IMG/VR virus record: IMGVR_UViG_3300042397_000475
Location: 2,254 to 66,253 of that record
Reading direction: 5' to 3' (one strand)
DNA: 64,000 nucleotides
Source of the DNA: a virus
The notes beneath the pieces were generated by a model. It was not told the DNA's origin and searched no databases. It was given only the letters and a program-made list of their open reading frames with translations. The position numbers and the translations under genes were made by a program. How positions within the stretch are numbered: position 1 is the stretch's first letter; each line of letters begins with the position of its first letter. Positions 1,503-40,746 of this stretch are shown piece after piece.

Positions 1503-4500
1503 TTATTTTGCTAATAATTGTTTAATTAATTCTTTAAGCTCAGCTATTTCTGTGTTTTGGGATTCAACCTGAACTTGCTGCTCTTTAATAGCTTGAATAA
1601 ATAAACCTGCCATATTTCCATAAGCAACTGAGTACATATCTTCTTCTGTGCCCGACACAACTTCTGGATGAACCGCTAAAACCTCTTGTGCAATAACTCC
1701 AGCGCTTCTTTTTGTTTTATCTTTAACATCATTACGAGTAAAAGTAACTCCCCGTAACGATTTTACTTTATCTAAGGCATCAGGGATGACTTCAACGTTT
1801 TCTTTTACTCTTGAATCTGAATAAGCTACAATATCTGTTTTAGCCCAAATAGAAGTTGAGGAGCCATCTCCACCAATAATAGCGTCTATAGAACCGTTAC
1901 TACATACGTATAATCCCCAACCCTGTACCTTTCCAGAACCCCAGAAGTTAGGATGCGAATAACCAATACCGTACATTCCGCCAAGAGACGTATCAGATGG
2001 CATATAATTACTACCGATTGTATAAATAGGATTTGTATTAGCGGAGTTTCCGCCAATATTATTATACGACCCTACTAAATATCCTGTTGAATGAGATGGT
2101 CTTCCGATATAGTTAGGCGTAATTGTTCCAGTGTGCCTTGAATCTCCTCCTGATGTAAAATGGTGACCTGCTCCGTTTGAAGGTGCATTACCAATAAAGG
2201 TCATTGAACCGTAAATCCAGTTAGTCCCCCCAGCTGTTGTAATCCCATTTGGGAAGAAAGCAGAGTTTGCTGTACCCCACGGGTTACCATTACTAACATA
2301 TCCTGATGGAGCGTTAACGCTCACAGCGGTGACGTCGCTAAATCTAATTTGTGGATTAATTGCTTCTGCAACTGTATTGAAAGATGTTACAAATGTTATG
2401 TCCCAGTTATTTGATACCGCACTAACATCACTTCTTACATACCCCCCTACAAAATCTATTACAGATACTTGAGGATAAGACCAAGAAGTTGTTGTTTCGC
2501 CAATCCATACGCAGTCATAACTACCATCATTACCAAACCTTACTGTTTTAGGGTCTGCACTAACTCCTCCCATAAAATAAGCACCCCTATGATAAGAACC
2601 TGCAGAGTAAGAGTAGTTGCCAATTGTATATTCTGAAGTAGCATCATTTGTATAATTATAAATCCTAACCTTCATAGACCACATACAATCATTCGCTCTA
2701 AAAGGTAATCTGATTTTTATTGCAGCAGTAATTCCACCAGCATTATATCCATTTGCAGCACCTTGGGGGGCAAATGTTCTTGATATAGTAGCCTGAGAAG
2801 CTGATGAACGAGAGTTGGTTCCAAATGAACCTCCAACTTCTAAGCTATTTTTTAATTTACCATAGCCGCTGCTACCCCACACTTCAAATAATGAATCCCA
2901 TCCATCAGAATGGACCCTAAATGATTCATTTGCCCCTACGTGCATTGCTAAACTAACTCTTCCAGACCAGCTTCTTCCTGCATCACTTTTTCCTATTCTT
3001 AAATTGCCGCTACCTCCTCCAATATGTATGGCTCCCCAGTTTTCAGAACCTCCGTTATTTACTAAAATGTTAGGTGTTCCGTTTCCACGATGAGGCATTT
3101 GAATGTATAACAAATTGGATGCGCCATCAGGGTCTAAATAGTATCCGCCATTATTAGAATCATAAAATGCTGAAGCATACCAATTGCCTGAATCATCACA
3201 CCAGGCTCCCCAAGAGGAAGATTGATTTAAAAATCCAATTCTATTAGAATTGCAGTGGATTTCCCTCATTCCTTCATCAGAGTCAGTCATATATATGGAG
3301 CTAGAACTGCCTCCATAGTTAACAACCAGGTTGCCGTGCAAATTAGTTTCCCTATTAGAGTTGACTCTTAATCCCCAGTTCCCATCATTTGTTAAAATGC
3401 CAATTTGATTAGAATCGTTAACGTAAAAATAGCCTCTAGTTGTACCCCCACTAGTCATCATCTGCATTGCTGCGGTAGAGCCTCCTGAACGCATACCCAT
3501 ATCACTACTTCCTTGAGGATATATATGCCAACCTGTATTTGACCAGTATATACCGTTATTACTAGTATGGTTTCTAAACCATCCACCTGTGGTATAAACA
3601 TCATTTCCGTATACTGAGCCACTACTTGTTACAGTTGTAAATGTCACATCTTGCCCGTGAAACGCAAATTGTTTCCAAGATGCCCAGGCATCATCGTGAT
3701 TATTAGTTTGCCTATAATATAGACGCGCATTAGTAGTATTATAGTTTGTGCCAATTTGAGACATACTATATCTATTGTACCCACTAAAGGTTATTACGTG
3801 AGACCAAGAGCCATCAGCAGAACCGCCACTTCCCATAAAGTCAACACGCATACCACCTCCGCCCATTTGAGAAGCAAGAGTACTTGGTGCATTGTTTTCT
3901 ATATAGCTACCATATTCATAGTAAGGCTTTAAATATTGTCCTGTAGCATCTTTTCTTACTAAACTTCCAATTCCGACACTTCCAACCGCACCTGCATTAG
4001 ATGCGTAAGAAACTGACTGAGAACCAATATTACCTGCGTGAATAACTATATTTCCGCCAACAACCATAGATGTTGCAGCGTATATTGTACTAGCAGACCA
4101 GATATATCCAGTATAATTAGATATCATCCACTGAGCATATGCTGTTGTTGCGCCTACAAAGTTTGATGTAAGAACTCCGTTTCCACTTGAGTTTGCCGCT
4201 GACATACCTACTAGTTCAGCTCCTACAGAGGTGTATCCACCAAATGTATGCTGACCAGTTGGAGCATTTTTCCAATATAATCCCCAGTTAGCAGCATTCT
4301 CTTGGAATATCCAAGCGTCTACTTCTGATACTGCGTGTTTAAGTAAAACAGAGCCTCCTGGTGCAGTAAAAGTTATGCCTCCAGATAATGTTCCTCCAGT
4401 TAATGGGAGAGCATAAGATGAATAATTGCCTGCGTGAAGAACCGCATTTCCTTTATAAGAGAAATCATTCATTCCAACTCTTAAAGTAACAGTTGTCCAT

Positions 4501-7157
4501 CCATAATCAACAACTTCAAAGAATGAAGCATTAGAGCCTCCTCCTAATTGTACTGTCATTGAGCCAGTGCTTCTGTCAGAAGCTCTACCTATCCAAGCTT
4601 CTCCTGAGTTAGAAGTAGAAACAGGGAATTGCCCCATTCTAATATAGCTAGTGCCAGAAGTAGCCATCCAAAGCGAGCCTACAGCTTGAATATTGCCATC
4701 ATTTCTGATTCTTAGATATTCGGTAAATGTTGTCGAAGTGCTTTTCCCAAATGTGATACCTCCTGTAGTTGCGCCTTGCGCTCCTGAATGTATTCTAAGT
4801 TCGCTACTTTGGACTTGTATCCCGTATCTATCTTCTCCTGAATAATAAAAATCAATCTTATTGCCTGTTAAATTTGAAAAAGCAATAATTCCCGTCATCG
4901 TACCTCCTGCCAACGGCAACTTAGTATTATCCGTCGCCGCAACCCCCGCTACCGTAATAACATTTCCAGAAGAATCAAACGCAAGGTATCCTGCGGCTGT
5001 GCCTGTGTAAGATGTTGCGGAGGTGTATCCTGAAATTTGCAATTGACGGTTGTCTTTTATAAAGAACGCATATAAGCTACTTGTTCTATTATAAACACCC
5101 ATACCATCATTCTGTGCTCCAATAGACCATAGATTACCTGCAGCAGATTGGATGTTCATCCATACGCCCCCACCTGTTCCTTGTAGGAATATTCCTTCGT
5201 TCCCAGTTGTGTAGACGTGGAGAGTTTTAGACGGAGAAGTAGTTCCTATGCCTACATTTCCATCGCCTCTAATTCTCATTTTTTCGGCAGTTATGCCGCT
5301 TCCATCACTTACTAAAAATCTTAAATTATTGTTAGCTGAACTTCCATCCGAGTGCTGATGTTCAATTTTGTGCAATCTTACTGTATCATAGCCAGGCTCA
5401 CTAAGTGTAATAGTCCCGTTTAAGTGTATTTGGCTTTGAGGATTAGTTAAACCAAATCCTGAATTACCAGAAGTTGAAATAAATAAGCCGTTACCAGCTA
5501 CCTCTCCAGATGACATTCCGCCACCAAAGTAAACTCCAGTTCCAACTGGTCTCAATACCGCTATATAGTTTGTATTAGCCGCATTAGGTGCCAAAATTCC
5601 TTTATTGTGAGCTATGAAAATTTGTCCTGTTCCATTAAATTCTCCGCCAGCATTTCCTGATGGGTCATAATTAATCGATACGTTAGTATTACTAACGCCA
5701 GTTCCAATTGCTAATACTTTATATGCTGCGCTATATCCTGTGTAAGATGGAGTTAAGATTACTTGATTATAGCCAATTTGAACAGTGCTTGAGAAAATTG
5801 CACTAGTGCCATATAGCGCTGCTCCTAAAGTTGTTGCTCCGCCAACTACTGTTAATCCGCCTCCACTCCCTCCTAAAGAATTTAGCTTAATTAGCATACC
5901 AGCATAATTGTCAAAATTTAGACCATTACTCTCATATCCTGCTACGCCATTTCCTCTTAAGATTCGACCTATTACAGTTGTTCCTGCTTTAAAATCTGCA
6001 TAATATTGAGCAGTTCCGCTTGCTCCATTCTCATTATTGAATATAGCAGCTGAGCTAGAAGCAGCATTACCTGTTGCTGTAATAACGCTACTAAACGTAG
6101 CGCTCGTACCAGTTATTGCGCCAACAAAATTTGCCGTACCATTAACGTCAAGCTTATAAGAAGTTGCCCCATAAGTTGTATATCCAACACTTAAGCTATT
6201 CCCAAAATATGACGTTCCATCTGTGTGCAATAATACTTTAAGCGCACCTGCTGCATTGTAATAATATGCTAAAGCAGTACCATCCACACCAATGTAGAAT
6301 GGATAGGCAGATAATGAGCCATCTGACTTTTCAATACGGAACTGCCCACCTGTAGGGTTAGAACGCATTGAAACAATATTATTGCCTTCTAATACGCCGC
6401 CATTAAGAGATAATGTTGGCGCATTAACAACTGAAGTAAATGTTTTTATACCTGCAACTGTTTGATTACCAGTTAATTTAACTACAGCAGCATCATCCGC
6501 AGGAGTATATCCTAACGCAGCAGCGATAGTTTTATTCTTCCATAAATCAGTTGCTGATTCATAAAACAATCCTTGATTATTAGCTAAAGAGGAGATAGAT
6601 ACGTCGTGGATTTCATCAAGCTCATATCCATTCTGAATCTTAACCTCAATCTGTCCTTGAGTCGGATGCGAACGAGTCACAACACCAATGTAAACTAAGT
6701 GATTAGGCGCTAATTGCTTAGTCGTTGTGTATGTTCCTGCAGTTGTAGACGAAAGGTATAATTGTGCTCCTTCAGTAAATGCACTTGTATTTATACCAGT
6801 AATATCTCCTATAACAACTACATTTCCATTTGAATTGTTAGCTATATCAGTTTGACATAAGCCAAACGTTTGAGCCGATGTAGAATCTCCTGTTGCAAGT
6901 GCTTTTGATACTGTAGGCTTATTGCCAGTAGCTCCCGAAATATAAATAACAGTACCCTTTGTTAAAGTAGCTCCAGTTGTATTTCTTATTTCGCGAACTA
7001 ATGTACCAGCACTAGCGGTTACACCAGGAGCATTATAATCAGTGCCAGCAACCGCAGCAACTAATTTACCGTCAGCGTCAGTTTTAAGTAAAGATGAGGT
7101 TACAGCCGTTTGAGAGACGTAACCTTTTACATCCGCGTTATTTAAAAACTTAGTCAT
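1503..7157 (-). CDS. Long tail fibre / receptor-binding protein with C-terminal intramolecular chaperone (peptidase S74)
   Basis: 1884 aa, G/S/T/N-rich with GNVGIGTTSP and LPLAGGTMTG fibre repeats; C-terminal SDSRVKENV...GVIAQEV...VAYGNMAGLFIQAIKE plus coiled coil. Confidence 0.9.
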   Translation of the reverse strand: MTKFLNNADVKGYVSQTAVTSSLLKTDADGKLVAAVAGTDYNAPGVTASAGTLVREIRNTTGATLTKGTVIYISGATGNKPTVSKALATGDSTSAQTFGLCQTDIANNSNGNVVVIGDITGINTSAFTEGAQLYLSSTTAGTYTTTKQLAPNHLVYIGVVTRSHPTQGQIEVKIQNGYELDEIHDVSISSLANNQGLFYESATDLWKNKTIAAALGYTPADDAAVVKLTGNQTVAGIKTFTSVVNAPTLSLNGGVLEGNNIVSMRSNPTGGQFRIEKSDGSLSAYPFYIGVDGTALAYYYNAAGALKVLLHTDGTSYFGNSLSVGYTTYGATSYKLDVNGTANFVGAITGTSATFSSVITATGNAASSSAAIFNNENGASGTAQYYADFKAGTTVIGRILRGNGVAGYESNGLNFDNYAGMLIKLNSLGGSGGGLTVVGGATTLGAALYGTSAIFSSTVQIGYNQVILTPSYTGYSAAYKVLAIGTGVSNTNVSINYDPSGNAGGEFNGTGQIFIAHNKGILAPNAANTNYIAVLRPVGTGVYFGGGMSSGEVAGNGLFISTSGNSGFGLTNPQSQIHLNGTITLSEPGYDTVRLHKIEHQHSDGSSANNNLRFLVSDGSGITAEKMRIRGDGNVGIGTTSPSKTLHVYTTGNEGIFLQGTGGGVWMNIQSAAGNLWSIGAQNDGMGVYNRTSSLYAFFIKDNRQLQISGYTSATSYTGTAAGYLAFDSSGNVITVAGVAATDNTKLPLAGGTMTGIIAFSNLTGNKIDFYYSGEDRYGIQVQSSELRIHSGAQGATTGGITFGKSTSTTFTEYLRIRNDGNIQAVGSLWMATSGTSYIRMGQFPVSTSNSGEAWIGRASDRSTGSMTVQLGGGSNASFFEVVDYGWTTVTLRVGMNDFSYKGNAVLHAGNYSSYALPLTGGTLSGGITFTAPGGSVLLKHAVSEVDAWIFQENAANWGLYWKNAPTGQHTFGGYTSVGAELVGMSAANSSGNGVLTSNFVGATTAYAQWMISNYTGYIWSASTIYAATSMVVGGNIVIHAGNIGSQSVSYASNAGAVGSVGIGSLVRKDATGQYLKPYYEYGSYIENNAPSTLASQMGGGGMRVDFMGSGGSADGSWSHVITFSGYNRYSMSQIGTNYNTTNARLYYRQTNNHDDAWASWKQFAFHGQDVTFTTVTSSGSVYGNDVYTTGGWFRNHTSNNGIYWSNTGWHIYPQGSSDMGMRSGGSTAAMQMMTSGGTTRGYFYVNDSNQIGILTNDGNWGLRVNSNRETNLHGNLVVNYGGSSSSIYMTDSDEGMREIHCNSNRIGFLNQSSSWGAWCDDSGNWYASAFYDSNNGGYYLDPDGASNLLYIQMPHRGNGTPNILVNNGGSENWGAIHIGGGSGNLRIGKSDAGRSWSGRVSLAMHVGANESFRVHSDGWDSLFEVWGSSGYGKLKNSLEVGGSFGTNSRSSASQATISRTFAPQGAANGYNAGGITAAIKIRLPFRANDCMWSMKVRIYNYTNDATSEYTIGNYSYSAGSYHRGAYFMGGVSADPKTVRFGNDGSYDCVWIGETTTSWSYPQVSVIDFVGGYVRSDVSAVSNNWDITFVTSFNTVAEAINPQIRFSDVTAVSVNAPSGYVSNGNPWGTANSAFFPNGITTAGGTNWIYGSMTFIGNAPSNGAGHHFTSGGDSRHTGTITPNYIGRPSHSTGYLVGSYNNIGGNSANTNPIYTIGSNYMPSDTSLGGMYGIGYSHPNFWGSGKVQGWGLYVCSNGSIDAIIGGDGSSTSIWAKTDIVAYSDSRVKENVEVIPDALDKVKSLRGVTFTRNDVKDKTKRSAGVIAQEVLAVHPEVVSGTEEDMYSVAYGNMAGLFIQAIKEQQVQVESQNTEIAELKELIKQLLAK

Positions 7158-7160
7158 TTA

Positions 7161-8264
7161 TTATTTTTTTATAACTACTCTGTAAGCGTTAGAAGCTGGA
7201 GCTACTGCAAATGATACAGTAACTACAGAAGTTGAAGTAAGAACCACGTCAGTGATTACCTCCTCGTAAGTTGTGTTGTCGTAAATTGAAACAACAACAT
7301 CTCTTGTACCTAAGTTATGAGTCAATGCAAATGAAGTAGCAGAACCGTCTCCTACGTTAGCAGCATATCCTCCAGTACGGTTATCTAATAAAGTCTTTAA
7401 CTTCAAAGGCGTAACGATTGTTGTATCGTCGGAACCTGTGTTAGTTTGAGTCTGTGTTGCAATCTTTGCAAGACCAAGTGTAGTTTCAGTAGCCTGGTCA
7501 CGGTTAACCTCTAAAGAAAACCAGTTTGCAGCATAAGTTGTAGTTGAAGCGTTATCAACCTTAGCGCCTAATACGTCGCCAACATTAAATGCGATTCCGT
7601 CTACTGTGCCAGCAACGCTAACATACCAGTAGTCGCCTTTCTTAGTTCCTGCAGATGGAGTTGAGCCAACTGGGAAAGAACCAGCAGAAGCATCCCAAGC
7701 TCCCTCTAAATTACCTAAAGAACCTGTATTTGCGTCAACATAAGCTTTGACAGCAGCAGCGCTAGGGATATTTGAGTCAGTCGCTCCAGTAAAAGTAGTA
7801 GATGTTAATATTTCAACTTCAGCAACATTACCTGTTGAACCAGATACGTTACCAAGTAACTTGCCGCTTGCAATGGTTTGAATCTTAGCAAATGTTACTT
7901 GATTAGCGCCAATCTTAATAGTTGTAACTGCGCCATCAGCTAATTTGCCTGTAGTAACCCCAAGGTCTTTAATTTGAACCGTGTCTGTGCTAATTTCAAT
8001 CGTAGCATTGTCTACGTTAACACTAAGGGTTACAACATCGCTTTCAGTAGAAGCGCTTAAACCTGCACCACCTAATACATCTTGGATATCTCCAGACATA
8101 TCTACCCAAGCGGTACCGTTGTAGAAATACATACGCAGGTCTGTTGTATCAAAATACACCTGACCAACTACTGGAGATGATGGAGCTGATGATAGATTCT
8201 GAATCGCGACGTTTAATATCTGATTCTTTGTTAAATCTAAATTGGTTAAAAACTTCTTTGCCAT
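7161..8264 (-). CDS. Tail fibre / structural protein
   Basis: 367 aa; ATETTLGLAKIATQTQTNTGSDDTTIVTPLKL fibre repeat; C-terminal THNLGT module. Confidence 0.8.
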   Translation of the reverse strand: MAKKFLTNLDLTKNQILNVAIQNLSSAPSSPVVGQVYFDTTDLRMYFYNGTAWVDMSGDIQDVLGGAGLSASTESDVVTLSVNVDNATIEISTDTVQIKDLGVTTGKLADGAVTTIKIGANQVTFAKIQTIASGKLLGNVSGSTGNVAEVEILTSTTFTGATDSNIPSAAAVKAYVDANTGSLGNLEGAWDASAGSFPVGSTPSAGTKKGDYWYVSVAGTVDGIAFNVGDVLGAKVDNASTTTYAANWFSLEVNRDQATETTLGLAKIATQTQTNTGSDDTTIVTPLKLKTLLDNRTGGYAANVGDGSATSFALTHNLGTRDVVVSIYDNTTYEEVITDVVLTSTSVVTVSFAVAPASNAYRVVIKK

Positions 8265-8272
8265 TGCTTATG

Positions 8273-9508
8273 TTAATTTAAAAATGCCTTGCCGCTAAAT
8301 GCTGCTGAAAATGTTACTACTACCTGGTTTGTATTTGTATAACGTACCTCTCCGATAACTTCATCATTTGCAGAATCAACTATACTAACGGATGGATACT
8401 TGCCTAAATTATGTGTAATTGTCCATACGGCGGCTGCAACAGTCTGAGTATGAACGTAAGCTGTTTTCGCTGTAAAGGTAAGTTTATTGTCACTTACTAC
8501 AATGCTTAATCCTGCATTTGCGGATTCAAATGTAACTGTTTCTCCCTGCGTTACAGAATCTAAATTTGTACCATCAAATAGCTTAAATGATGTACTATTT
8601 GTTGTAGATAATCTAAATGGCAACATTTGAGTTGCCTTATATGTGTATGGATTAGTAGGAGGTAATAATCCTAATAACTGGTCTAATACTGGTTTGCATC
8701 CGTCTAATGTCCCTGTATCATATCTAGCAATTAAATGAGAATATAATCCAAGCACTAAATCATACTCTTCATTTCTTAAAGCATATTCGCTAGGATTAGT
8801 TGTCTTATATACTTCAATCTGGTCTTTATAGGCATTCATTAAAGCAACTAACTCATCTTGAGTAGGAGCTTCTCTAATGTCATATGTTTCTTGCAATAAG
8901 TCAACATAACTTACCGTTAACCAAGACTTAGTAGAATGCGTATAAGCCACGGAAATATCTGATTTGACCAGATATATACCCTCGTAGTATTTCGAGCTGT
9001 GAGAGGGCATTAAAACGTCTCCTACGCTAGTCTTTGTAATTACTCCTACCTCACTAGTAGATGGGGTCGTAGTGTAAAAGTTTCTAGTTAGAACGCCTGT
9101 AAAACTACCAGATGTTTCGTAAGCTGTATCGTCTAAGAACTTAATATCAGGTAAAACTACATCTGATTCATTATTAATAGCCTTTGTCGGCTTCTCCCAG
9201 TTAAAATCAAATGTTTCTTCTTTGGCAAACTGTGCGTTTGCTGCGTTTACTGCAACAAAATTAATAACATAGGTTCCAGTAAGAATACTGTTGTCAACAT
9301 CTGTAATTAAAGATATATTAGTAGAGCCACCTGGCGCACTAATGTCGGGCGATTGGAAGTCTGTGTGTATTACTTTCGACCCATCAGGAAATGTAACCGA
9401 GAAGTTACCCTTGGCTAAGACAAAGCCCGTGGACGTATCTGTCAAACGCAAAACCCTATTTGAGGTCTTTTCGTTTACAATAAATTGGGCATTAAAATTT
9501 GCAGGCAT
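8273..9508 (-). CDS. Virion structural protein
   Basis: 411 aa; C-terminal WTITHNLGKYPSV module shared with the neighbouring gene; lies in the structural module. Confidence 0.7.
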   Translation of the reverse strand: MPANFNAQFIVNEKTSNRVLRLTDTSTGFVLAKGNFSVTFPDGSKVIHTDFQSPDISAPGGSTNISLITDVDNSILTGTYVINFVAVNAANAQFAKEETFDFNWEKPTKAINNESDVVLPDIKFLDDTAYETSGSFTGVLTRNFYTTTPSTSEVGVITKTSVGDVLMPSHSSKYYEGIYLVKSDISVAYTHSTKSWLTVSYVDLLQETYDIREAPTQDELVALMNAYKDQIEVYKTTNPSEYALRNEEYDLVLGLYSHLIARYDTGTLDGCKPVLDQLLGLLPPTNPYTYKATQMLPFRLSTTNSTSFKLFDGTNLDSVTQGETVTFESANAGLSIVVSDNKLTFTAKTAYVHTQTVAAAVWTITHNLGKYPSVSIVDSANDEVIGEVRYTNTNQVVVTFSAAFSGKAFLN

Positions 9509-15315: not shown

Positions 15316-17325
15316 TTAAAATGGGAATATCTCCCTTATATCGTATATTTTCTGTTTTTGCTCTACTCTTTCACTAAATTTAGACTTGTTAGCCTGTATT
15401 AACGTATAACCAGATGCCATCGCGGCGTCAAACTTGGTTGTCTTGTTAATATCAAAAGTTAACCAGTCTTTTAATAATCGCATAAAGATAACCTTTTCTA
15501 CGTTCTCTGTAATATAACTTTCTGTCACTTCTGCAATCTGCTGGTGCGTCTTAACTGTTGCAGAGATTCCATACTTACTAGCGCCAGGCAGTTTAACCAA
15601 AAACTTATCATAACCCCTGTACTCAAAGTACTTAATCAATCCAACCTTGTTATCCTCGGATAATATTTCGCATCCAAAGAAGTGACAAAGCTTAATCATA
15701 TCCTCGTAGAATATCTCAGCCTTCTCAGGTCTGTTAAGGTATTCAACTAAGAATGTCTCACTAAACTCATCTAGCGCATCATATCTTCTATACACATATG
15801 CAGCACCATCTGACCGCTCCTTACTTGTTGTAATGCTATGGTCAAAGGGGTCAACTGCTATTGCGTACTTCTTGCTTTCCTTAGGTACTTTGCGAGTACC
15901 GTACTCATCTACTTGGTTAAAGTTAGCGTAGTCGTATATGTTAAGTTTCTTATGAACTAAGAACTTCCCATTAGACGTCTCGTTGAAAACAACTCTACTG
16001 TCCCGCTCTGCTTTTTCCCAAACAAATTCTCCACGCAAATATAAATCTTTTTCAGCAATCCACGATATAGATTCCATCTGTCTGTTCAATGCCATCGCAT
16101 CATACAAACAAGTCTCAGCTTCACTAAAGAATGCCTCGCCTATCGTAAAAGGGTTCTTGCGGATAAAAGAAGCCAATGCGCGTGGGTCCATCTCTAAAGC
16201 AGCACGTTCTGCTAAGTAAAATTCTTTTGCCTTCTCTTCGTCAGCTTGACCAAACTTGTCATAGAACAATGTCTTATAAGCAGGCATAAAGTACTGATAT
16301 AGTCCTGAGCGTGTTCTGCCGTTAGCATTCTTTTCGTTCTGATTAGATGCGTCCCATAACATTTTAAAGGATTCTCCACCATCTTCCATTTCCTCAACGG
16401 TGGTGGTGTATAAAGCCTTGCCGATAATGTTCTCCTCCTGCTGGAGACAGAACTGCAAGACCTGATGTCTGTCGTAGACGTCAACGTTCTTAGTCTTACC
16501 TGCCTCATCACCTAGGTAGCGGTGAAGTTTCATACCGTCATAAGCAAACTTATCAGCCGATTTAAAAGTAATAGATGATTCAAGCTCAATCTTTTCAGCA
16601 AAAATGTCGTCAGTTGCACCTCGTTTATTTGTTTTAAAAAATCTAAGTTCTCCTTTAGGGGTCATACCCTTCTCAGTATCGTATATAGGAACAAAGAAGT
16701 CAGGTAAGTACTTGAATGGCATAATAACACCCTTAGCAAATACGTTCTCCTTAGCATCCTCAAATGTCTTCGATTGGATACCCGCGTTCTTATTCTTGCT
16801 TCTAGAGGTTAATTCAAATAGGAATGCACCTGCGCGCATAGTCTTTCCTTGACGACGCTTCGTTACCTCAACCATTCCTAGGCAATTAGGGTCTTGTACA
16901 CAGTACTCTAGGAACATAAAGAAGTCCCTGTCAGTCATCCTAAAAGAAGGATAGCCTACGTCAAGCTTCCAATGCACTAGGTAAAAGTAATGCAGACCTG
17001 TTATGTAAGTAGCGTGACCATTGTTGTAAAACCAGAATCCATTAAGACGCCTGTCCCACTCTTGGTTGCGGTATTCCTGTAGTTCAGGGTTATAATATCC
17101 TGGACTTGTCTTTTGAGCCGCAATCTCTTTCTTACGTTTTGTTTCGTAGTCTTTAGGTGGCTCAGGTCTTTCCCAGTATTGGTAGTCCTTCTTAACAGAC
17201 CGCGCCATTATCTCGCGCTTCTCCCACTGGTTAGTAATAATGTTATAGACATAGCCATTAGGCGGGATACTAACCGTTATACCATTAATCTCATAAGGCT
17301 TACCCTTGGGATGTTTTCTATACAT
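15316..17325 (-). CDS. terL: Terminase large subunit
   Basis: Walker A KRRQGKT, Walker B YLGDEAGK, nuclease motifs IAVDPF and KFDAAMASG. Confidence 0.92.
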   Translation of the reverse strand: MYRKHPKGKPYEINGITVSIPPNGYVYNIITNQWEKREIMARSVKKDYQYWERPEPPKDYETKRKKEIAAQKTSPGYYNPELQEYRNQEWDRRLNGFWFYNNGHATYITGLHYFYLVHWKLDVGYPSFRMTDRDFFMFLEYCVQDPNCLGMVEVTKRRQGKTMRAGAFLFELTSRSKNKNAGIQSKTFEDAKENVFAKGVIMPFKYLPDFFVPIYDTEKGMTPKGELRFFKTNKRGATDDIFAEKIELESSITFKSADKFAYDGMKLHRYLGDEAGKTKNVDVYDRHQVLQFCLQQEENIIGKALYTTTVEEMEDGGESFKMLWDASNQNEKNANGRTRSGLYQYFMPAYKTLFYDKFGQADEEKAKEFYLAERAALEMDPRALASFIRKNPFTIGEAFFSEAETCLYDAMALNRQMESISWIAEKDLYLRGEFVWEKAERDSRVVFNETSNGKFLVHKKLNIYDYANFNQVDEYGTRKVPKESKKYAIAVDPFDHSITTSKERSDGAAYVYRRYDALDEFSETFLVEYLNRPEKAEIFYEDMIKLCHFFGCEILSEDNKVGLIKYFEYRGYDKFLVKLPGASKYGISATVKTHQQIAEVTESYITENVEKVIFMRLLKDWLTFDINKTTKFDAAMASGYTLIQANKSKFSERVEQKQKIYDIREIFPF

Positions 17326-18157: not shown

Positions 18158-18802
18158 CTAGTATTTTGTAGACAAAATATCGCTTTGGCGCACTGTATAG
18201 TAGTCTTTTCCCTCAATCTTGTTTACAAAGTTTGAGTTCTTGTTTAACAAAACAAGCGAACCTGTGCTAATTCCCAGCTCATCTTCACCAACTAATGGCT
18301 TACCAATATGTACTAACCTAGCAAACTTAGTTGATGGCTTTTTATTGATACCAATTACTAGTCCAGATGCCGATGTTATAGCTTCAATTTTCTGACCACC
18401 AACTTCAACCGTATTAAACTCCTCTTCAACCACCGTCTCACATAAAGTCCAGCTGCCAACAGGTAATATATTACCACTCCTAACGACACAAAATACCCAA
18501 TAATAAGGTACTTTATAATAGTTCCCGTAGATACAGTTCGTTTCATCAGATGTAGTTAAGTAATGAAAGTAAATAATGTCTCCTACCTGCACTTCTTTTT
18601 CTATCTCAACGTTCTCTTCGTTGTAAGCCTTTCCATCAGGAACAGCTATGACACGACCATAGATTCTAGCGTATTGTGTAGGATTAAATTCAGGGTCTAT
18701 ATGGAGCTTTAAATTACCGAACTGGACAGTATCATCCATTGAAGCACCGACTTCAACCACGACCGTATTTGGTGGCGATTTTTTGATATCGTAAGTAAGC
18801 AT
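18158..18802 (-). CDS. GroES-like co-chaperonin (tandem domains)
   Basis: 214 aa; GRVIAVP...EVQVGDIIYF and TSASGLVIG GroES-like motifs; lies upstream of the terminase genes. Confidence 0.7.
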   Translation of the reverse strand: MLTYDIKKSPPNTVVVEVGASMDDTVQFGNLKLHIDPEFNPTQYARIYGRVIAVPDGKAYNEENVEIEKEVQVGDIIYFHYLTTSDETNCIYGNYYKVPYYWVFCVVRSGNILPVGSWTLCETVVEEEFNTVEVGGQKIEAITSASGLVIGINKKPSTKFARLVHIGKPLVGEDELGISTGSLVLLNKNSNFVNKIEGKDYYTVRQSDILSTKY

Positions 18803-19410
18803 TAAAATGTTTGTTTGGTTTGTAAAGGTAAAGATAGATAGATACCCACACATATCCAATTCTTTCCTCTATATGTTTCCACTGCCAGTTTGCTTTAAAC
18901 GCAGTTTTTTATAGCGTGTAGTTGTTTGTTGAAGGTTATATATATTATCGGACGGGTCGCGCACACGAATGGCAAACGGGATTTTCCGATGGGGTGGGTT
19001 CACTTTCCCAAATCCAAATTCCGAAATTATGGTCAATGTATCTATGTGGTACAATAAACAATTTCCTAATGTATCCTTGTGGTACAATGACTGCTGTGCT
19101 ATACTGTTCTACTCTCACGGCTACCACTTCGAGAGAATAAATGCAACAACGTTGCAAGAAGGAACTAATGTATGCAATGTAATGTACCAAAATGATGCAA
19201 TAGGATTAACTGAGGGCGTATTTGTCCAAGGCGAACTATCCGCCACACACCACACCCCTAAAAAAACCCCCCATTTTACTAGCATTCGATTTAAGGGGTC
19301 ATATCTTCGATTTAAGACACTTTACCCCCTCAAATGTCCATTCTATCCACCCTAAGCGAGATAATGCCTTAGACGCAAAATCGGGGTAATTTTGATGTTA
19401 AAAATTCTGC

Positions 19411-19539
19411 TATACGCGTGTACGTGTGTGATGTGCGCCTACGCGTGTGTACTCGCGTGTACGTGCGTGTATGTGCATACCTGCGCGACGTGTGTACGCT
19501 TGCGCGTGTCGTGATGTGCGCGCGATACGCGTGTGTGCG
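19411..19539. repeat. Alternating purine-pyrimidine tract (CG/TG/TA dinucleotides)
   Basis: tatacgcgtgtacgtgtgtg...gcgcgcgatacgcgtgtgtgcg, ~130 bp, non-coding, at the strand switch. Confidence 0.85.
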
Positions 19540-19680
19540 GTTTCAGTATCTTTTAAAGGGGATTCTCTGAGAAAAGTACAAAAAGGGTATATTTTCGTTG
19601 TATTATTCTAAGAAAATGGGGATTTCGTCGACACATTTCGGGATTTCGTCTCATATCTAGGTTATTTTAAGGGGGTGCTA

Positions 19681-19710
19681 TTGTAAATCAAAAAGTTTAG
19701 GCAATCTTTG
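19681..19710 (+). promoter_or_regulatory. Probable early promoter (TTG ... AATCTTTG)
   Basis: Near-consensus Bacteroidota -33/-7 elements directly upstream of the structured RNA. Confidence 0.55.
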
Positions 19711-19717
19711 TAATGTC

Positions 19718-20133
19718 ATCACGGGGAAACGTCCTCAGAGGCAAAATATCCACTTTTTGTGGGGGTAAAGAGAACACCCTAAATTCTCCCTGTCCCGAAA
19801 GAGGGGCATTGCAGGCAAGTATACTGAACGCACGGATTGGCTCAGTAAGTAGAACGCCCCACATAGCACCATTACGCTAGGCACTTGGATGAGCAGTTTA
19901 TCGCTCCAGTGTATAAACCTCCCGACCTGATACATACGATGGTCGACTGCGGTAGTCAGCTAGGTTAAACCCGATGCCCCCGCGATATGTGAGCCTCTAC
20001 TTGCATCCCTAATTGACGGAAGGTTAAAAGTTCTGCGCGGTAGAGGGAAGATTTTATGCAAGGTTCTGTGGACTGAACCTGCCCGTCAGCAAAGGCGGTT
20101 ACAAAAGCGCCACTCATTCAAGGCTTATGAATA
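19718..20133 (+). ncRNA. Large structured non-coding RNA, family unknown
   Basis: GC-richer, no credible ORF; more than 10 complementary helices, including a closing helix 19718-26/19978-86 and crossing helices 19994-20001/20039-46, 20000-06/20056-62, 20014-19/20083-88. Confidence 0.65.
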
Positions 20134-20134
20134 C

Positions 20135-20188
20135 GGCTAGTCAGGGTGCAAATGTCAATGGTGGGCGGTTCGATTCCGCCACTAGTCG
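20135..20188 (+). ncRNA. tRNA-like minihelix (acceptor stem + T arm, no D or anticodon arm)
   Basis: GGCTAGT/ACTAGTC 7-bp acceptor stem; GGCGG-TTCGATT-CCGCC T arm; only a 22-nt linker. Confidence 0.7.
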
Positions 20189-20203
20189 CTAACTTTCAAC
20201 TAT

Positions 20204-20225
20204 CCTTTCGGTGTAGGTAACCGAA
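20204..20225 (+). promoter_or_regulatory. Conserved pre-ATG hairpin motif, copy 1
   Basis: CCTTTCGGTGTAGGTAACCGAA; ATG at 20235. Confidence 0.85.
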
Positions 20226-20234
20226 TCAAATCTT

Positions 20235-20513
20235 ATGAAATTCAATGTATTAGCAGAAGCAATGTTACAAATCAAGGAGTTAGGCTTAGAGGGTACAAAC
20301 TTTGGAATTAAGCAAAGTGTGTACGACGATGGCAAAGGCAAGTATGAGGTTGTGACCGTCGAGGTAAAGTTTGATGTCGACCTAATGAAGAAGTTGACCG
20401 CTATTAGCAATCACGTTAGCTTCAAACCATCGGTAGATGGCAAAGAGCGCTACCTAGGATTCAATACGGTGAGAGGTAGCGAAGGCGATAGACTGGACTT
20501 TAAACTAGTGTAA
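20235..20513 (+). CDS. Early hypothetical protein (92 aa)
   Basis: Preceded by motif copy 1; its TAA stop lies within hammerhead stem I. Confidence 0.8.
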   Translation: MKFNVLAEAMLQIKELGLEGTNFGIKQSVYDDGKGKYEVVTVEVKFDVDLMKKLTAISNHVSFKPSVDGKERYLGFNTVRGSEGDRLDFKLV

Positions 20514-20557
20514 CTGATGAGGCTTGAATAGCCGAAACCCCTACGGGGGTCTTACAC
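20508..20557 (+). ncRNA. Hammerhead ribozyme, type I (copy 1)
   Basis: Stem I GTGTAA/TTACAC; CTGATGA; stem II GGCT-tgaat-AGCC; GAAA; stem III CCCC-tacg-GGGG; GUC cleavage triplet at 20549-51. Confidence 0.93.
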
Positions 20558-20563
20558 ACTTAT

Positions 20564-20584
20564 CCTTGCGGTGTAGGTAACCGC
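20564..20584 (+). promoter_or_regulatory. Conserved pre-ATG hairpin motif, copy 2
   Basis: CCTTGCGGTGTAGGTAACCGC; ATG at 20595. Confidence 0.85.
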
Positions 20585-20594
20585 GTCAAATCAA

Positions 20595-20843
20595 ATGAAT
20601 AATTTATCAGGCAAATTGTTAGCAATCAACGAAATCTCTAATGAAATCTTCGGGGGCGAAATGGCAGACACTTACGTTATCAGCGTATGGGACAAAGAAA
20701 TTACCTTCTCGTGCCATTACAAAAAAGAAATCGCGGCTAAGGCTATCGCAATGGATGGCGCTAAGTGCGAAGTTAATAGCAGTGGCTTTTCCACTATCAC
20801 ATTTAGACATTTTGACTTAGATATCAAAATCACGCTTTCCTAG
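20595..20843 (+). CDS. Early hypothetical protein (82 aa) flanked by two hammerheads
   Basis: Preceded by motif copy 2; TAG stop abuts hammerhead 2. Confidence 0.8.
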   Translation: MNNLSGKLLAINEISNEIFGGEMADTYVISVWDKEITFSCHYKKEIAAKAIAMDGAKCEVNSSGFSTITFRHFDLDIKITLS

Positions 20844-20891
20844 TGTAACTGATGAGTCCTAATGGACGAAACGCCTACGGGCGTCTTACAC
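20843..20891 (+). ncRNA. Hammerhead ribozyme, type I (copy 2)
   Basis: Stem I GTGTAA/TTACAC; CTGATGA; stem II GTCC-taat-GGAC; GAAA; stem III CGCC-tacg-GGCG; GUC triplet at 20883-85. Confidence 0.93.
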
Positions 20892-20897
20892 ACTTAA

Positions 20898-20919
20898 CCT
20901 TTCGGTGTAGGTAACCGAA
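20898..20919 (+). promoter_or_regulatory. Conserved pre-ATG hairpin motif, copy 3
   Basis: CCTTTCGGTGTAGGTAACCGAA; ATG at 20929. Confidence 0.85.
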
Positions 20920-20928
20920 TCAAATGCT

Positions 20929-21222
20929 ATGAATAACTTAATCGAAAAGTCTTACGAAATTGACAACTCTTGGACAATAACAAGAGCGGATGGCACAAGT
21001 TTGCCAATGCATAAAATTGTGAGCGTAAGGATTGCAGATGGTGATACGGTCATCTATTATTCAATACAAAGAACAAATGGCGTAGGCGAAAGTTACATCC
21101 TTATGCAAAGAAAAAATGCCAAACTCCACTACAATGAAAAAACATATTGGAAAAATTACGATGACAACGCAAAGTTTGAGCGCGCCATCAAAAGAATTGA
21201 GCGTATGGTTTCTAGTCTTTAA
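20929..21222 (+). CDS. Early hypothetical protein (97 aa)
   Basis: Preceded by motif copy 3. Confidence 0.75.
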   Translation: MNNLIEKSYEIDNSWTITRADGTSLPMHKIVSVRIADGDTVIYYSIQRTNGVGESYILMQRKNAKLHYNEKTYWKNYDDNAKFERAIKRIERMVSSL

Positions 21223-21235
21223 TCTTTCAACCAAA

Positions 21236-21256
21236 CCTTGCGGTGTAGGTAACCGC
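21236..21256 (+). promoter_or_regulatory. Conserved pre-ATG hairpin motif, copy 4
   Basis: CCTTGCGGTGTAGGTAACCGC; ATG at 21267. Confidence 0.85.
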
Positions 21257-21266
21257 GACACATCTT

Positions 21267-21485
21267 ATGAATACGAACAGAAAAATCAATATCGCTAACA
21301 CCATCACATATTTATGCGGGGCATTGCTTTCCTTATTCGCTCTTACGGGCTTAGTTAAGGCGTGGTACTTTAGTGACCCAACAATCGACACGGGTGCACA
21401 TTGGATTGTATGCGCGTTCGGTATCATCACTATGTTTTTCTCGATGTTTGCAAGCGATGAGCAAAAAAAATCACGCAAGCAATAA
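21267..21485 (+). CDS. Small early membrane protein (2 predicted TM helices)
   Basis: 72 aa with two hydrophobic stretches; preceded by motif copy 4. Confidence 0.7.
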   Translation: MNTNRKINIANTITYLCGALLSLFALTGLVKAWYFSDPTIDTGAHWIVCAFGIITMFFSMFASDEQKKSRKQ

Positions 21486-21526
21486 TCGTTTCAACTATCA
21501 CACATTCACACACACACACAAATCTT

Positions 21527-22447
21527 ATGGCAACTCAAGCAGAATTAATCGACCAAATCAATGACACAATTATCGCGGGCTTACAAGCTAAGGGCTTACA
21601 ATGGTTCAAACCATTTAAGGATAGCTCCACCCTACAATGGAACGCTATAAACTCATCAGGCAAGGCTTACCGAGGTGTTAATCAGTTTATCCTATCAGCT
21701 AAGGCTATCGACAAAGGATGGGTTAATAAATGGTATACCTTTGCTCAAGTAAGCAAGCTAGATGGACGTGTTAACAAGGGCGAAAAGTCTACGGATGTAT
21801 ACCTTTGGAAGGTCAACTTTGCAGTAGAAATCGCGGGCAAAGTTCAATATTTCCCACGCATTGAGGATATCCCATCGCACCTACAAAAGCAAGCTAAGAA
21901 AGCGTTCTACCTACAGACATTTAAGGTGTTTTCTATATCACAAACCAATTTGCCTATAGACACCCCCGCTGAGCCTATCGAGGTTACAGAATTGGAAGCG
22001 GACGCACACGCTGAGTCTATCCTTCAGGCTTGGACTAGCGAGGTTGTAACTATTAAGCATTCAGGCTTAGGTCGCGCTTACTATTCTCCTAGCGGGGACT
22101 ACATCCATATGCCATCTAAGACTACAGACCAATGGAAATCGAACGGGGACTACTACAAAGTATTCTTTCACGAAGCTATCCATAGCACAGGTCATTCGTC
22201 ACGCCTTAATCGCTTAGATAAGACGGCAAACTTTGGCTCTGACGAGTATAGTAAGGAGGAATTAGTAGCTGAACTAGGCGCGCTATATTTAGAGGCTATC
22301 ACGGGCATTAAAACAATCGTCGACGATGTCAAAAACTCGCAGGCTTATATCAACGGATGGATTAGTAAATTAAAATCTGACCCTAAGTTGATTATGAGCG
22401 CCTCTACCAAGGCTCACGAAGCAGTAGAATTAATCCTATCCAAGTAA
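21527..22447 (+). CDS. ardC: ArdC-family ssDNA-binding antirestriction protein with zincin-like metallopeptidase domain
   Basis: W.KPF, YRGVNQFIL, WYTFAQ, V.KGEKS, AYYSP..DYIHMP, FHEAIHSTGH..RL.R, YSKEELVAELGA, SQAYINGW. Confidence 0.9.
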   Translation: MATQAELIDQINDTIIAGLQAKGLQWFKPFKDSSTLQWNAINSSGKAYRGVNQFILSAKAIDKGWVNKWYTFAQVSKLDGRVNKGEKSTDVYLWKVNFAVEIAGKVQYFPRIEDIPSHLQKQAKKAFYLQTFKVFSISQTNLPIDTPAEPIEVTELEADAHAESILQAWTSEVVTIKHSGLGRAYYSPSGDYIHMPSKTTDQWKSNGDYYKVFFHEAIHSTGHSSRLNRLDKTANFGSDEYSKEELVAELGALYLEAITGIKTIVDDVKNSQAYINGWISKLKSDPKLIMSASTKAHEAVELILSK

Positions 22448-22462
22448 TTTCCACTATCAAAA

Positions 22463-22485
22463 CCTTGCGGTGTATAGGTAACCGC
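22463..22485 (+). promoter_or_regulatory. Conserved pre-ATG hairpin motif, copy 5
   Basis: CCTTGCGGTGTATAGGTAACCGC; ATG at 22494. Confidence 0.85.
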
Positions 22486-22493
22486 TCACTATT

Positions 22494-22733
22494 ATGGCAC
22501 GTTCAAAAAAAACAATTAGTGTATCTAATATGATAGATTATGCTAATGCTAATCTAGCAAGAACAGATGTATATGCAACTAAAGAATTTAAAGTAGGTAT
22601 CACAATTATGATAGAAGAAATTTTGCATAGAACAGATAATTATTGGGGCTTTATGTTTCTAGACAATAACGACTCAAAAACGGATAGCCTTGGCTATTAT
22701 TCGAGAAAATACTTTAAGTCACATAAATTGTAA
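22494..22733 (+). CDS. Early hypothetical protein (79 aa)
   Basis: Preceded by motif copy 5. Confidence 0.75.
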   Translation: MARSKKTISVSNMIDYANANLARTDVYATKEFKVGITIMIEEILHRTDNYWGFMFLDNNDSKTDSLGYYSRKYFKSHKL

Positions 22734-22743
22734 AAACTAACAA

Positions 22744-22766
22744 CCTTGCGGTGTATAGGTGACCGC
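22744..22766 (+). promoter_or_regulatory. Conserved pre-ATG hairpin motif, copy 6
   Basis: CCTTGCGGTGTATAGGTGACCGC; ATG at 22776. Confidence 0.85.
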
Positions 22767-22775
22767 ATTAAGACT

Positions 22776-22949
22776 ATGAATAATAGATATGTAATCACAT
22801 TTGGATTTGAAGGAGAAAACGGCTTTCAAGTACAAAAATCCAAACCAATCCCAGCTAATGATGAGCAAGAGGCTTGCCAAATGTTATCTAATCAATTCGA
22901 AAATTACGAAGGTATTTCTATTGACATCCTTTTAGTAACTAAACAATAA
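22776..22949 (+). CDS. Early hypothetical protein (57 aa)
   Basis: Start moved to the ATG at 22776 following motif copy 6. Confidence 0.7.
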   Translation: MNNRYVITFGFEGENGFQVQKSKPIPANDEQEACQMLSNQFENYEGISIDILLVTKQ

Positions 22950-22957
22950 TCATTTAA

Positions 22958-22979
22958 CCTTGCGGTGTAGGTCAACCGC
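22958..22979 (+). promoter_or_regulatory. Conserved pre-ATG hairpin motif, copy 7
   Basis: CCTTGCGGTGTAGGTCAACCGC; ATG at 22990. Confidence 0.85.
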
Positions 22980-22989
22980 ATACACACTT

Positions 22990-23229
22990 ATGAAAGCATA
23001 CCCAAAAAAAGTAGTTGAGCGTCGCATCAACTTAACCTTAGACGAAGTAGAATCTATGGTCGAATTTCTTAAGGCAAATTACCCTAAGGAAAATCAATTA
23101 CCTGAAATAAAAACATCACTTAATAATATACTGATTGCCCTAGACTTTGAAGATGTAGAATCAGATGGATGGGAATTTTATAGCAATGGCAGTCGAGTTA
23201 ACTTAAACCCTAAACCCCTTTCATTATGA
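22990..23229 (+). CDS. Early hypothetical protein (79 aa)
   Basis: Start moved to the ATG at 22990 following motif copy 7. Confidence 0.7.
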   Translation: MKAYPKKVVERRINLTLDEVESMVEFLKANYPKENQLPEIKTSLNNILIALDFEDVESDGWEFYSNGSRVNLNPKPLSL

Positions 23230-23639
23230 AAATTCAAGAATTATTAGACTTGCGCACAGACGCATTCCAAAAGTATTTATTTGCTCCCGTTGTAATGAAT
23301 AAGGTCTACTCAAACGAAGATGAAATCGTTCAATTCACAGACACGGCTTTCATAGATAAACATACGGGCGATGTAGTTTACCTTGTTGAGTTTGGCATTG
23401 ACCGCTCCCATCCTCTGTATGGCGTTGTAGACCCTAGATATGGCTTTGTGGTTAGCGGATTTGAGCCTGATAGCGATGGAGGCTTCGAGTTTTCTTATCT
23501 ATATGAAATAGAAAATAATACTATTGCAGATTACGAAACGGCAGAAGACTTTTTAAAAAGTTACGAATTAGTCTTAGGCGTTACCCACGAAGTTGTAAAA
23601 ATCATTAATCGATATGTCGAAAGAAAAAACAGATATTAA
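23226..23639 (+). CDS. Hypothetical protein (137 aa, acidic)
   Basis: ATGA overlap with the upstream gene. Confidence 0.7.
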   Translation: MKIQELLDLRTDAFQKYLFAPVVMNKVYSNEDEIVQFTDTAFIDKHTGDVVYLVEFGIDRSHPLYGVVDPRYGFVVSGFEPDSDGGFEFSYLYEIENNTIADYETAEDFLKSYELVLGVTHEVVKIINRYVERKNRY

Positions 23640-33463: not shown

Positions 33464-33577
33464 AGTCAGGTGGCGGAATGGGTTGTATTAGGGGTTTCCC
33501 AGCCGATGGTATACGCTATAAATGTAATAAGTCTATAAAGCATTTATATTTTACAGGTTCGAATCCTGTCCTGACTA
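33464..33577 (+). ncRNA. tRNA-like RNA A (D-loop insertion, non-canonical anticodon arm)
   Basis: AGTCAGG/CCTGACT acceptor stem; TGGCGGAA...GGTATACGC D arm with insert; ACAGG-TTCGAAT-CCTGT T arm. Confidence 0.75.
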
Positions 33578-33702: not shown

Positions 33703-33789
33703 AGTCAGGTGGCAGAAATTATGGTAATGTTATAAATGTAATAAGTCTATAAAGCATTTAATGTACAGGTTCGAATCCTGTCCTGACTA
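33703..33789 (+). ncRNA. tRNA-like RNA B (non-canonical anticodon arm)
   Basis: Same acceptor stem and T arm as A; shares the identical 30-nt TATAAATGTAATAAGTCTATAAAGCATTTA arm. Confidence 0.75.
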
Positions 33790-33961
33790 CTAGGAGCCCT
33801 TTAGGCTACATTAACAGACCGACATTTTGGACTGAGATGATTAATGATAGAAGCATATTAATGGGGCTAAATTTAATTATATTGATATGTTTTGAGAGCA
33901 ATGCCTATTAACACGTAGTTGCATCATTAATAAAAATTGACTGCTGGAAAGACAGCAATTT

Positions 33962-34054
33962 AGTCAGGTAGCTTAAAGGTCATAAGGAAATTGACCCTTG
34001 AGGATTAGAGCACTCGAAAGAGATGAGGTGTGGGTTCGATTCCCACTCTGACTA
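33962..34054 (+). ncRNA. tRNA-like RNA C (anticodon arm replaced by CTC-GAAA-GAG)
   Basis: AGTCAGG/TCTGACT acceptor stem; D arm with GGTCA/TGACC hairpin insert; GTGGG-TTCGATT-CCCAC T arm. Confidence 0.72.
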
Positions 34055-34067
34055 CTAGATTTAAGAT

Positions 34068-40602: not shown

Positions 40603-40746
40603 TTACTTCTTTTTTGACGCAAGATACTTAAAATAATTTACTTGTTTCTCACGTTTTTCTATACCTGCTTTAGTCTTAGCAGTTCCTAAGTTACGACCAG
40701 TTGTTTTGGAGACTAACTTGTAGCCTCCTTTTATTTTCTTTATCAT
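40603..40746 (-). CDS. Small basic peptide (47 aa, not in ORF track)
   Basis: MIKKIKGGYKLVSKTTGRNLGTAKTKAGIEKREKQVNYFKYLASKKK*; ATGA-coupled to the 2467 aa gene. Confidence 0.7.
   Translation of the reverse strand: MIKKIKGGYKLVSKTTGRNLGTAKTKAGIEKREKQVNYFKYLASKKK

Follow-up and report, generated by a model that had tools for sequence, protein, structure and literature searches.

Type I hammerhead ribozyme motifs bracket a small conserved gene in the early region of a lake phage and may separate its messages

Organization of the early region

We examined a 64,000-nucleotide (nt) stretch of a viral genome from IMG/VR (record IMGVR_UViG_3300042397_000475), hereafter the window, and in particular two type I hammerhead ribozyme motifs, HH_A and HH_B, that lie between small genes of its early region. 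The source record comprises 66,253 bases and is rated complete, and the window corresponds to its bases 2254–66253. Both motifs are on the plus strand, HH_A at 20508–20557 (identified by its fold and our covariance model R2) with predicted cleavage after C20551, and HH_B at 20843–20891 (identified by Rfam RF00163, R2, and its fold) with predicted cleavage after C20885. They belong to a rightward block of small open reading frames (ORFs) that begins near position 20200 and includes an ArdC-like anti-restriction gene.

The plus-strand ORFs of this block follow one another closely around the motifs. An ORF of 92 amino acids (aa) at 20235–20513 ends with the stop codon TAA (20511–20513) inside stem I of HH_A, and the 82-aa ORF at 20595–20843 is bracketed by HH_A and HH_B, its stop codon TAG (20841–20843) sharing the last base, G20843, with stem I of HH_B. 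This is the placement of both stop codons that an initial annotation, made from the letters alone, had described. The following 97-aa ORF (20929–21222) has no hammerhead after it in the window, whereas its homologue in the related locus L047 has one. The ArdC-like gene (21527–22447; phrog_7245, 4e-55; Pfam ArdcN and MPTase-PolyVal) is the conserved anchor of the early region. Searches of PHROGs and Pfam with four small ORFs, including those of 92 and 82 aa, returned no family.

The 82-aa ORF is, judged by its conservation, a real gene: 12 further clusters were found, every one exactly 82 aa long and 62–88% identical. No relative was present in the viral contig set, either by single-protein or by alignment search, and a metagenome scan recovered three loci encoding relatives, L046 (99%), L047 (77%), and L048 (57%). 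A homologue of the 92-aa ORF with 74% identity was found in L003, where it is likewise followed by a hammerhead.

A short hairpin precedes the start codons of the block. Four plus-strand copies were located, at 20207–20225 (containing the exact 15-nt motif at 20209–20223, with no hammerhead ahead of it), 20567–20585 (after HH_A, ending 9 nt before the ATG), 20901–20919 (after HH_B), and 21239–21257 (an exact copy of the motif). The 15-nt core occurs exactly four times in the window and seven times when up to three mismatches are allowed, against 0.5 expected, and degenerate copies lie near 22470, 22747, and 22963. Seven of the first eight early ORFs are preceded by the hairpin, the ArdC-like gene not being among them. 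The loop always retains AGGU, while the copies differ in the stem by a U-A to G-C exchange and a U-G wobble, which points to structure at the RNA level. A role as a Shine-Dalgarno element was considered and rejected because AGGU lies 16 nt before the ATG, farther than the usual spacing of such elements. The hairpin stem starts 15–16 nt past each predicted cut, and the distance of about 12 nt in the initial annotation needs correcting accordingly. The repeated unit of hairpin, ORF, and hammerhead that it had proposed is supported, being present in the window and recurring in relatives.

Between 18800 and 23300, no terminator-like site was found on the plus strand, and sigma-70-like sites were not above chance (10 versus 12.2 expected), with none at the linkers, in a scan that covered sigma-70-like promoters and not those of Bacteroidota type. 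One long transcript fits these results. The leaders ahead of the ATGs lack a Shine-Dalgarno sequence, which fits a host among the Bacteroidota.

Sequence, fold, and conservation of the two hammerheads

Read from 5' to 3', HH_A consists of GUGUAA / CUGAUGA / GGCU-UGAAU-AGCC / GAAA / CCCC-UACG-GGGG / UC / UUACAC, and HH_B of GUGUAA / CUGAUGA / GUCC-UAAU-GGAC / GAAA / CGCC-UACG-GGCG / UC / UUACAC. CUGAUGA, GAAA, and the GUC triplet are in register in both, and both have the features that define a type I core, namely CUGANGA, GAA, the A15.1-U16.1 pair, and a cleavage triplet of the form NUH. Stem I is identical in the two motifs, whereas stems II and III differ in sequence and remain fully paired; with the core pair included, stem III is ACCCC/GGGGU in HH_A and ACGCC/GGCGU in HH_B. 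Folding analysis revealed the canonical three-way junction as both the minimum free energy (MFE) and the centroid fold of each motif (z -2.8 and -3.3); in it, loops close stems II and III, and stem I is left open.

A search with Rfam RF00163 (Hammerhead_1) recovered HH_B with 34.4 bits (gathering score 34; E 8e-5), while a 21-kb scan that admitted E values of up to 5 gave no match of HH_A to this family. Because HH_A fell short of every Rfam threshold, we built our own covariance models. Model R1 combined HH_A, HH_B, and a 55-nt BLAST match from Agrobacterium phage OLIVR1, and it found hammerheads in loci gathered through the ArdC protein. Model R2 was built from eight hammerheads of phages whose ArdC is 36–42% identical to that of the window; it contains no window sequence, although its alignment was guided by R1. 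When R2 was run over the whole 64-kb window with filters off, HH_A scored 53.0 bits (E 4e-15) and HH_B 49.0 bits (E 1e-13), and the next best match had an E value of 1.5, so that R2 finds exactly these two hammerheads in the window. These scores rule out a chance occurrence of the motifs.

Covariation was evaluated in 18 matches drawn from 45 sources, in an alignment fitted to the model and thus somewhat favouring the structure. Standard pairs occupied 97.7% of the pair cells, compared with 29–43% when the partners were slid by one to three columns. Compensatory changes on both sides were observed in 12 of the 15 pairs, and none of 500 shuffles reached the observed covariation score. The initial annotation had recognized two complete type I hammerheads with intact cores and GUC triplets, an identical stem I, and fully paired but divergent stems II and III, and had taken the pairing as a sign of selection; all of this agrees with the direct reading, the folds, the R2 scores, and the covariation, which together support the view that both ribozyme motifs are genuine and under selection.

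Distribution and geometry in related phages

DNA of this phage is present in lake and estuary metagenomes, and the number of hammerheads that surround the same genes in its close relatives is 0, 1, or 3. Hammerheads lie at positions 1540, 1915, and 2249 of L046 and at 998, 1368, and 1700 of L047, two of them bracketing the 82-aa gene in each case, and none was found in L048. L046 has an extra 101-aa cassette, and in L047 the homologue of the 97-aa ORF stands before rather than after the 82-aa gene and, unlike in the window, is followed by a hammerhead. Across 11 loci, few of the small ORFs that lie upstream of ArdC, after the non-coding region, were shared. The units of hairpin, ORF, and hammerhead vary in both order and number among L046, L047, and other relatives.

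We compared the window with DNA contigs, and contigs only, of four other runs at 85% likeness. In contigs from other lakes, sequence was replaced or deleted and the break points fell at the linkers: 20237 is joined to 20533 across 307 unrelated letters, and 20892 to 21236 so that the 97-aa cassette is missing. The hammerhead segments were all that many contigs had in common with the window, their flanks being unrelated, and depth at these segments reached 127.7, compared with about 6.

Clustered hammerheads were also found near ArdC in unrelated phages. L039 has four on the same strand, flanking ArdC and a 121-aa ORF, and L036 has two on the same strand, flanking a 67-aa ORF. A pattern scan for the stem I variant identified 15 viral loci, in which R2 found 33 hammerheads; at least two were present in 8 of these 15 loci, some of which are near-duplicates.

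The geometry was analysed in 47 non-duplicate hammerheads, after removal of the duplicates L060:8255, L064:7034, and L055:6136 and of L057:8613 and L057:6313 (E 5e-4 and 8e-4). Three further matches were not counted as hammerheads: L007:6230–6276 (E 0.63, inside an ORF), L024 (17–21 bits, A/T-rich), and L033:5435–5500 (E 0.05). The stop codon of an upstream ATG-initiated ORF of at least 30 aa fell 0 to +5 nt into stem I in 30 of the 47, and an ATG-initiated ORF began within 80 nt downstream in 41, the commonest gaps to the ATG being 18–22 nt, or 35–40 nt where the hairpin is present. The cleavage triplet was GUC in 44 and GUA in 3. The layout of hammerhead, hairpin, and ATG was found in L059 and in all 11 hammerheads of the window clade (two in the window, one each in L003, L006, and L009, and three each in L046 and L047).

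Several individual cases stand beside these general patterns. At L046 1915–1963 and L047 998–1047, the upstream ORF continues through the catalytic core to a TAG in stem II, and the last residues of its protein are therefore encoded by the core. The minus strand of L057, a 39.8-kb viral contig, has 10 hammerhead matches within about 7.3 kb (2233–9483), of which eight have E values of 2e-8 or lower. A Shine-Dalgarno-like AAAGGA and then an ATG come after every match, in an operon far denser than that of the window. The cultured, N4-like Agrobacterium phage OLIVR1 (Schitoviridae) has an unannotated type I hammerhead in its early region (L002 3502–3551, record positions 3960–4009) that is 86% identical to HH_B over 55 nt and shows a compensatory change in stem I. 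A weaker candidate was found in Flavobacterium phage elemoF_6-3D (L050 1246–1303, minus strand, record positions 16045–16102; 31.8 bits, E 7e-8). Its stem II is poorly paired, it lies between two small minus-strand genes with an ATG 22 nt on, and it underlies the 35-aa plus-strand ORF gp66, which is probably mis-annotated.

Proposed function and alternative explanations

We propose that HH_A and HH_B are functional type I hammerheads in intergenic spacers of an early transcript, and that their self-cleavage cuts the polycistronic RNA into single-gene messages with defined ends. The probability of this explanation is, in our estimate, about 0.7. Hammerhead cleavage leaves a 5'-OH and a 2',3'-cyclic phosphate. 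Each motif would fold once transcribed and cut after its GUC; the upstream cistron would then keep stems II and III of the hammerhead as a 3' end with a 2',3'-cyclic phosphate, while the downstream cistron would gain a 5'-OH, a short leader of fixed length, the conserved hairpin, and the ATG. Cleavage at both sites is predicted to release an RNA of 334 nt (20552–20885, plus strand), a length that agrees with the initial annotation, comprising a 5'-OH leader, the hairpin, the 82-aa ORF, and most of HH_B with its 2',3'-cyclic phosphate end. In Escherichia coli, 5'-OH ends evade the 5'-monophosphate-dependent decay carried out by RNase E, and we assume that the ends proposed here would likewise escape such decay in this phage.

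The operon would thereby, together with the tRNA-like minihelix ahead of its first cassette, be punctuated into messages whose stability and start context do not depend on the neighbouring gene, hammerhead and hairpin together acting in a manner analogous to the synthetic insulator RiboJ. Such insulation makes sense because the early cassettes are frequently exchanged. Cleavage in vivo and its effect on expression are what we infer from the motifs and their arrangement.

Several observations weigh against this proposal. HH_B clears the RF00163 gathering score by just 0.4 bits, and the scores of HH_A lie below every Rfam gathering score (HH9, 19.5 bits; RAGATH-1-hammerhead, 23.1 bits). Stem I has only 6 bp in both motifs and is open, without an internal loop, and no conserved partner for loop II was seen when the flanks were inspected by eye; natural hammerheads usually need a contact with loop II for speed at low Mg2+ (PMC13725137). 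Some hairpins stand ahead of ORFs lacking a hammerhead, and hairpin and hammerhead are thus separable. Among nine loci with an ArdC at least 85% identical, three carry one hammerhead each and six carry none within the available stretch (just 158 nt upstream in L004), which indicates that hammerheads are dispensable. Furthermore, no RNA run was listed as matching 19700–21600.

The strongest of the other explanations places the main role at the DNA level, with the hammerhead-plus-hairpin blocks of about 90 bp serving as recombination homology for cassette swaps and RNA cleavage being secondary. In its favour, near relatives such as L046 and L047 differ in cassette content and order while their linkers are nearly identical, the contig break points fall at the linkers, and many contigs share the hammerhead segments alone. 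The PeSL elements of T4-type phages (PMC2839356) provide a precedent. Homology alone, however, offers no explanation for a strict core and compensatory changes in all three stems among phages whose ArdC is just 36–42% identical, and it leaves unexplained why the motifs keep a fixed register relative to stop codon and ATG; moreover, the strong sigma-70-like promoter and the terminator stem-loop that define PeSLs were not detected in 18800–23300. We consider it unlikely that recombination is the main role, and a contribution of the linkers to swapping is compatible with self-cleavage.

A second explanation, raised in the initial annotation, is that host RtcB, or the hammerhead reaction running in reverse, seals the 334-nt piece into a circle that can be translated and withstands exonucleases. 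The ends produced by hammerheads are chemically suited to ligation by RtcB, a point in favour of this idea, and RtcB was present in 10 of 14 control genomes, one of them a Bacteroides. Stem I is the same in all 11 window-clade hammerheads, so the 5' end of any released piece could pair with the 5' strand of the hammerhead at its 3' end and rebuild a nicked hammerhead. Against it, close relatives have 0 or 1 hammerhead, and function therefore cannot rest on hammerhead pairs; neighbouring stems I in L039 match at only 4–5 of 6 positions, and no gene for RtcB or an RNA ligase was found in the phage. In the MFE fold of the 334-nt RNA, which is weak thermodynamic evidence, the 5' end is unpaired and the core of HH_B is paired elsewhere. 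No report of circular mRNAs from hammerhead pairs in a DNA phage was found among the titles and abstracts surveyed, and Perreault et al. 2011 (PMC3088659), who searched for circular or spliced RNAs arising from the hammerhead clusters of phages, detected none.

We therefore regard circularization as very improbable. The same low standing applies to a broader scheme of plug-and-play cassettes, in which the linker would supply both DNA homology for swapping and RNA insulation, and the released pieces would be sealed by the reverse reaction or host RtcB into circular, translatable early mRNA; if it were true, such mRNA would resist host exonucleases.

Also very improbable is that the hammerheads are selfish or relic elements spread among lake phages without benefit to the carrier: the patchy distribution (0–3 copies in close relatives), the sharing of one stem I variant by phages whose leaders and genes are quite unlike, and the description of the role of bacterial and phage hammerheads as undefined (PMC6765202) would fit this idea, but the motifs always lie on the coding strand and between genes, hold a conserved position relative to stop and start codons, and have an intact cleavage triplet in 47 of 47 cases, a count that is partly circular because the matches came from a hammerhead model.

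Other features of the genome

Ahead of the first cassette lies a conserved non-coding region (19560–20200) that ends in a tRNA-like minihelix on the plus strand (about 20142–20190), composed of an acceptor stem and a T-arm with the loop GGTTCGATTCC. The minihelix matched no Rfam family, and Rfam searches of 19560–20240 returned nothing but sub-threshold noise. RNAalifold analysis of the minihelix in five relatives gave 16 pairs, four of them with compensatory changes, and the element may be a further RNA-processing point before the first cassette. The non-coding region is kept at full length in L046, L003, and L047, whereas L013 and L006 keep only its first ~95 nt and last ~92 nt. Just upstream, at 19400–19545, is a G+C-rich tract built of short, alternating repeats of GT/GC type (gtgtacgtgtgtg..., cgcgtgtg...), for which Rfam gave only noise.

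The minus strand holds the structural genes, including those for the portal, the large terminase, and the tail fibre. The terminase shows about 31% identity to those of Flavobacterium and Cellulophaga phages, indicating distant kinship. A 2467-aa ORF on the minus strand (40743–48146) had no PHROG, Pfam, or PDB-sequence match; one possibility, given the distant kinship with podoviruses of Cellulophaga and Flavobacterium, is an RNA polymerase packaged in the virion, in which case the pre-ATG hairpins might serve as its promoters.

Odd tRNA-like genes lie at 33464–33577, 33703–33790, and 33962–34055. Two Rfam tRNA matches there share the same acceptor stem and contain long insertions (30 and 19 nt in one, 27 and 11 nt in the other), while ARAGORN calls differ, giving a tRNA-Tyr with anticodon ATA at 33703–33790 and an undetermined tRNA at 33962–34055.

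Comparison with known systems

Retrozymes and viroid-like circular RNAs contain one and the same hammerhead repeatedly, and RNA circles are the intermediates of their replication. The present arrangement resembles them insofar as two hammerheads delimit a segment that might in principle be cut out and closed into a circle, but this segment is a cassette that codes for a protein, and the genome is DNA. A 2026 paper described type I hammerheads of RNA viruses that lie in intergenic untranslated regions (UTRs) just before ORFs and are active without the usual loop-loop contact (PMC13725137). HH_A and HH_B are like these in type, in their long helix III, in their position in a short intergenic UTR with the cut a few nucleotides before the next ORF, and, as far as inspection by eye shows, in having no typical loop-loop contact; those viruses, however, infect eukaryotes and the proposed role is in cap-independent translation, whereas the window belongs to a DNA phage of bacteria.

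RiboJ (PMC8794103) joins the sTRSV hammerhead to a 23-nt hairpin, so that ribozyme, hairpin, and translation start follow in the same order as in the window. Its cleavage strips the upstream RNA and gives the downstream gene a constant 5' leader, and the arrangement described here may by analogy act alike. RiboJ is an engineered type III element placed behind a promoter, whereas the motifs in the window are natural, of type I, and located between cistrons.

The PeSLs of T4-type phages are described in Arbiol et al. 2010 (PMC2839356) as a promoter combined with a terminator stem-loop. As in that account, the early region here is hyperplastic, short conserved intergenic elements bracket its small ORFs of no assigned function, and close relatives differ in gene content through shuffling with break points at the linkers. 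Unlike PeSLs, the linkers of the window contain a ribozyme, and neither a promoter (in the sigma-70-like scan) nor a terminator was detected in them.

The closest precedent is Perreault et al. 2011 (PMC3088659). That report describes several hammerheads that often flank single genes or short gene blocks in prophages, the identities of the genes varying, and proposes that they cut long phage transcripts into single-gene mRNAs. Circular or spliced products were considered possible and looked for, and neither was detected; tandem phage hammerheads cleaved in vitro, and a triple arrangement from Agrobacterium tumefaciens that flanks ardA cleaved in vivo after cloning. The role of phage hammerheads has been open since 2011, and a 2019 review still called the purpose of bacterial and phage hammerheads undefined (PMC6765202). 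The lake-phage group offers a clean comparative setting for this question, with 0 to 3 hammerheads around the same genes in a fixed register with stop codon and ATG. Two cultured phages carry a candidate (OLIVR1 and, more weakly, elemoF_6-3D), which makes the insulation and stability hypothesis directly testable.

In the window, L046, L047, L036, and L039, at least two coding-strand hammerheads bracket single genes, as in the clusters of 2011, and an anti-restriction gene is a neighbour in both settings, ardA there and the ArdC-like gene here. The present genome differs from the prophages described there in being lytic-type, podovirus-like, and from lake water, and in having a conserved hairpin after each hammerhead and a stop codon built into stem I. 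The initial annotation had put the locus forward as an undescribed system, but since such clusters, the proposal of single-gene mRNAs, and the idea of circular products had all appeared in the 2011 report, the system in the window is a further case of the phage hammerhead arrangement first described there.

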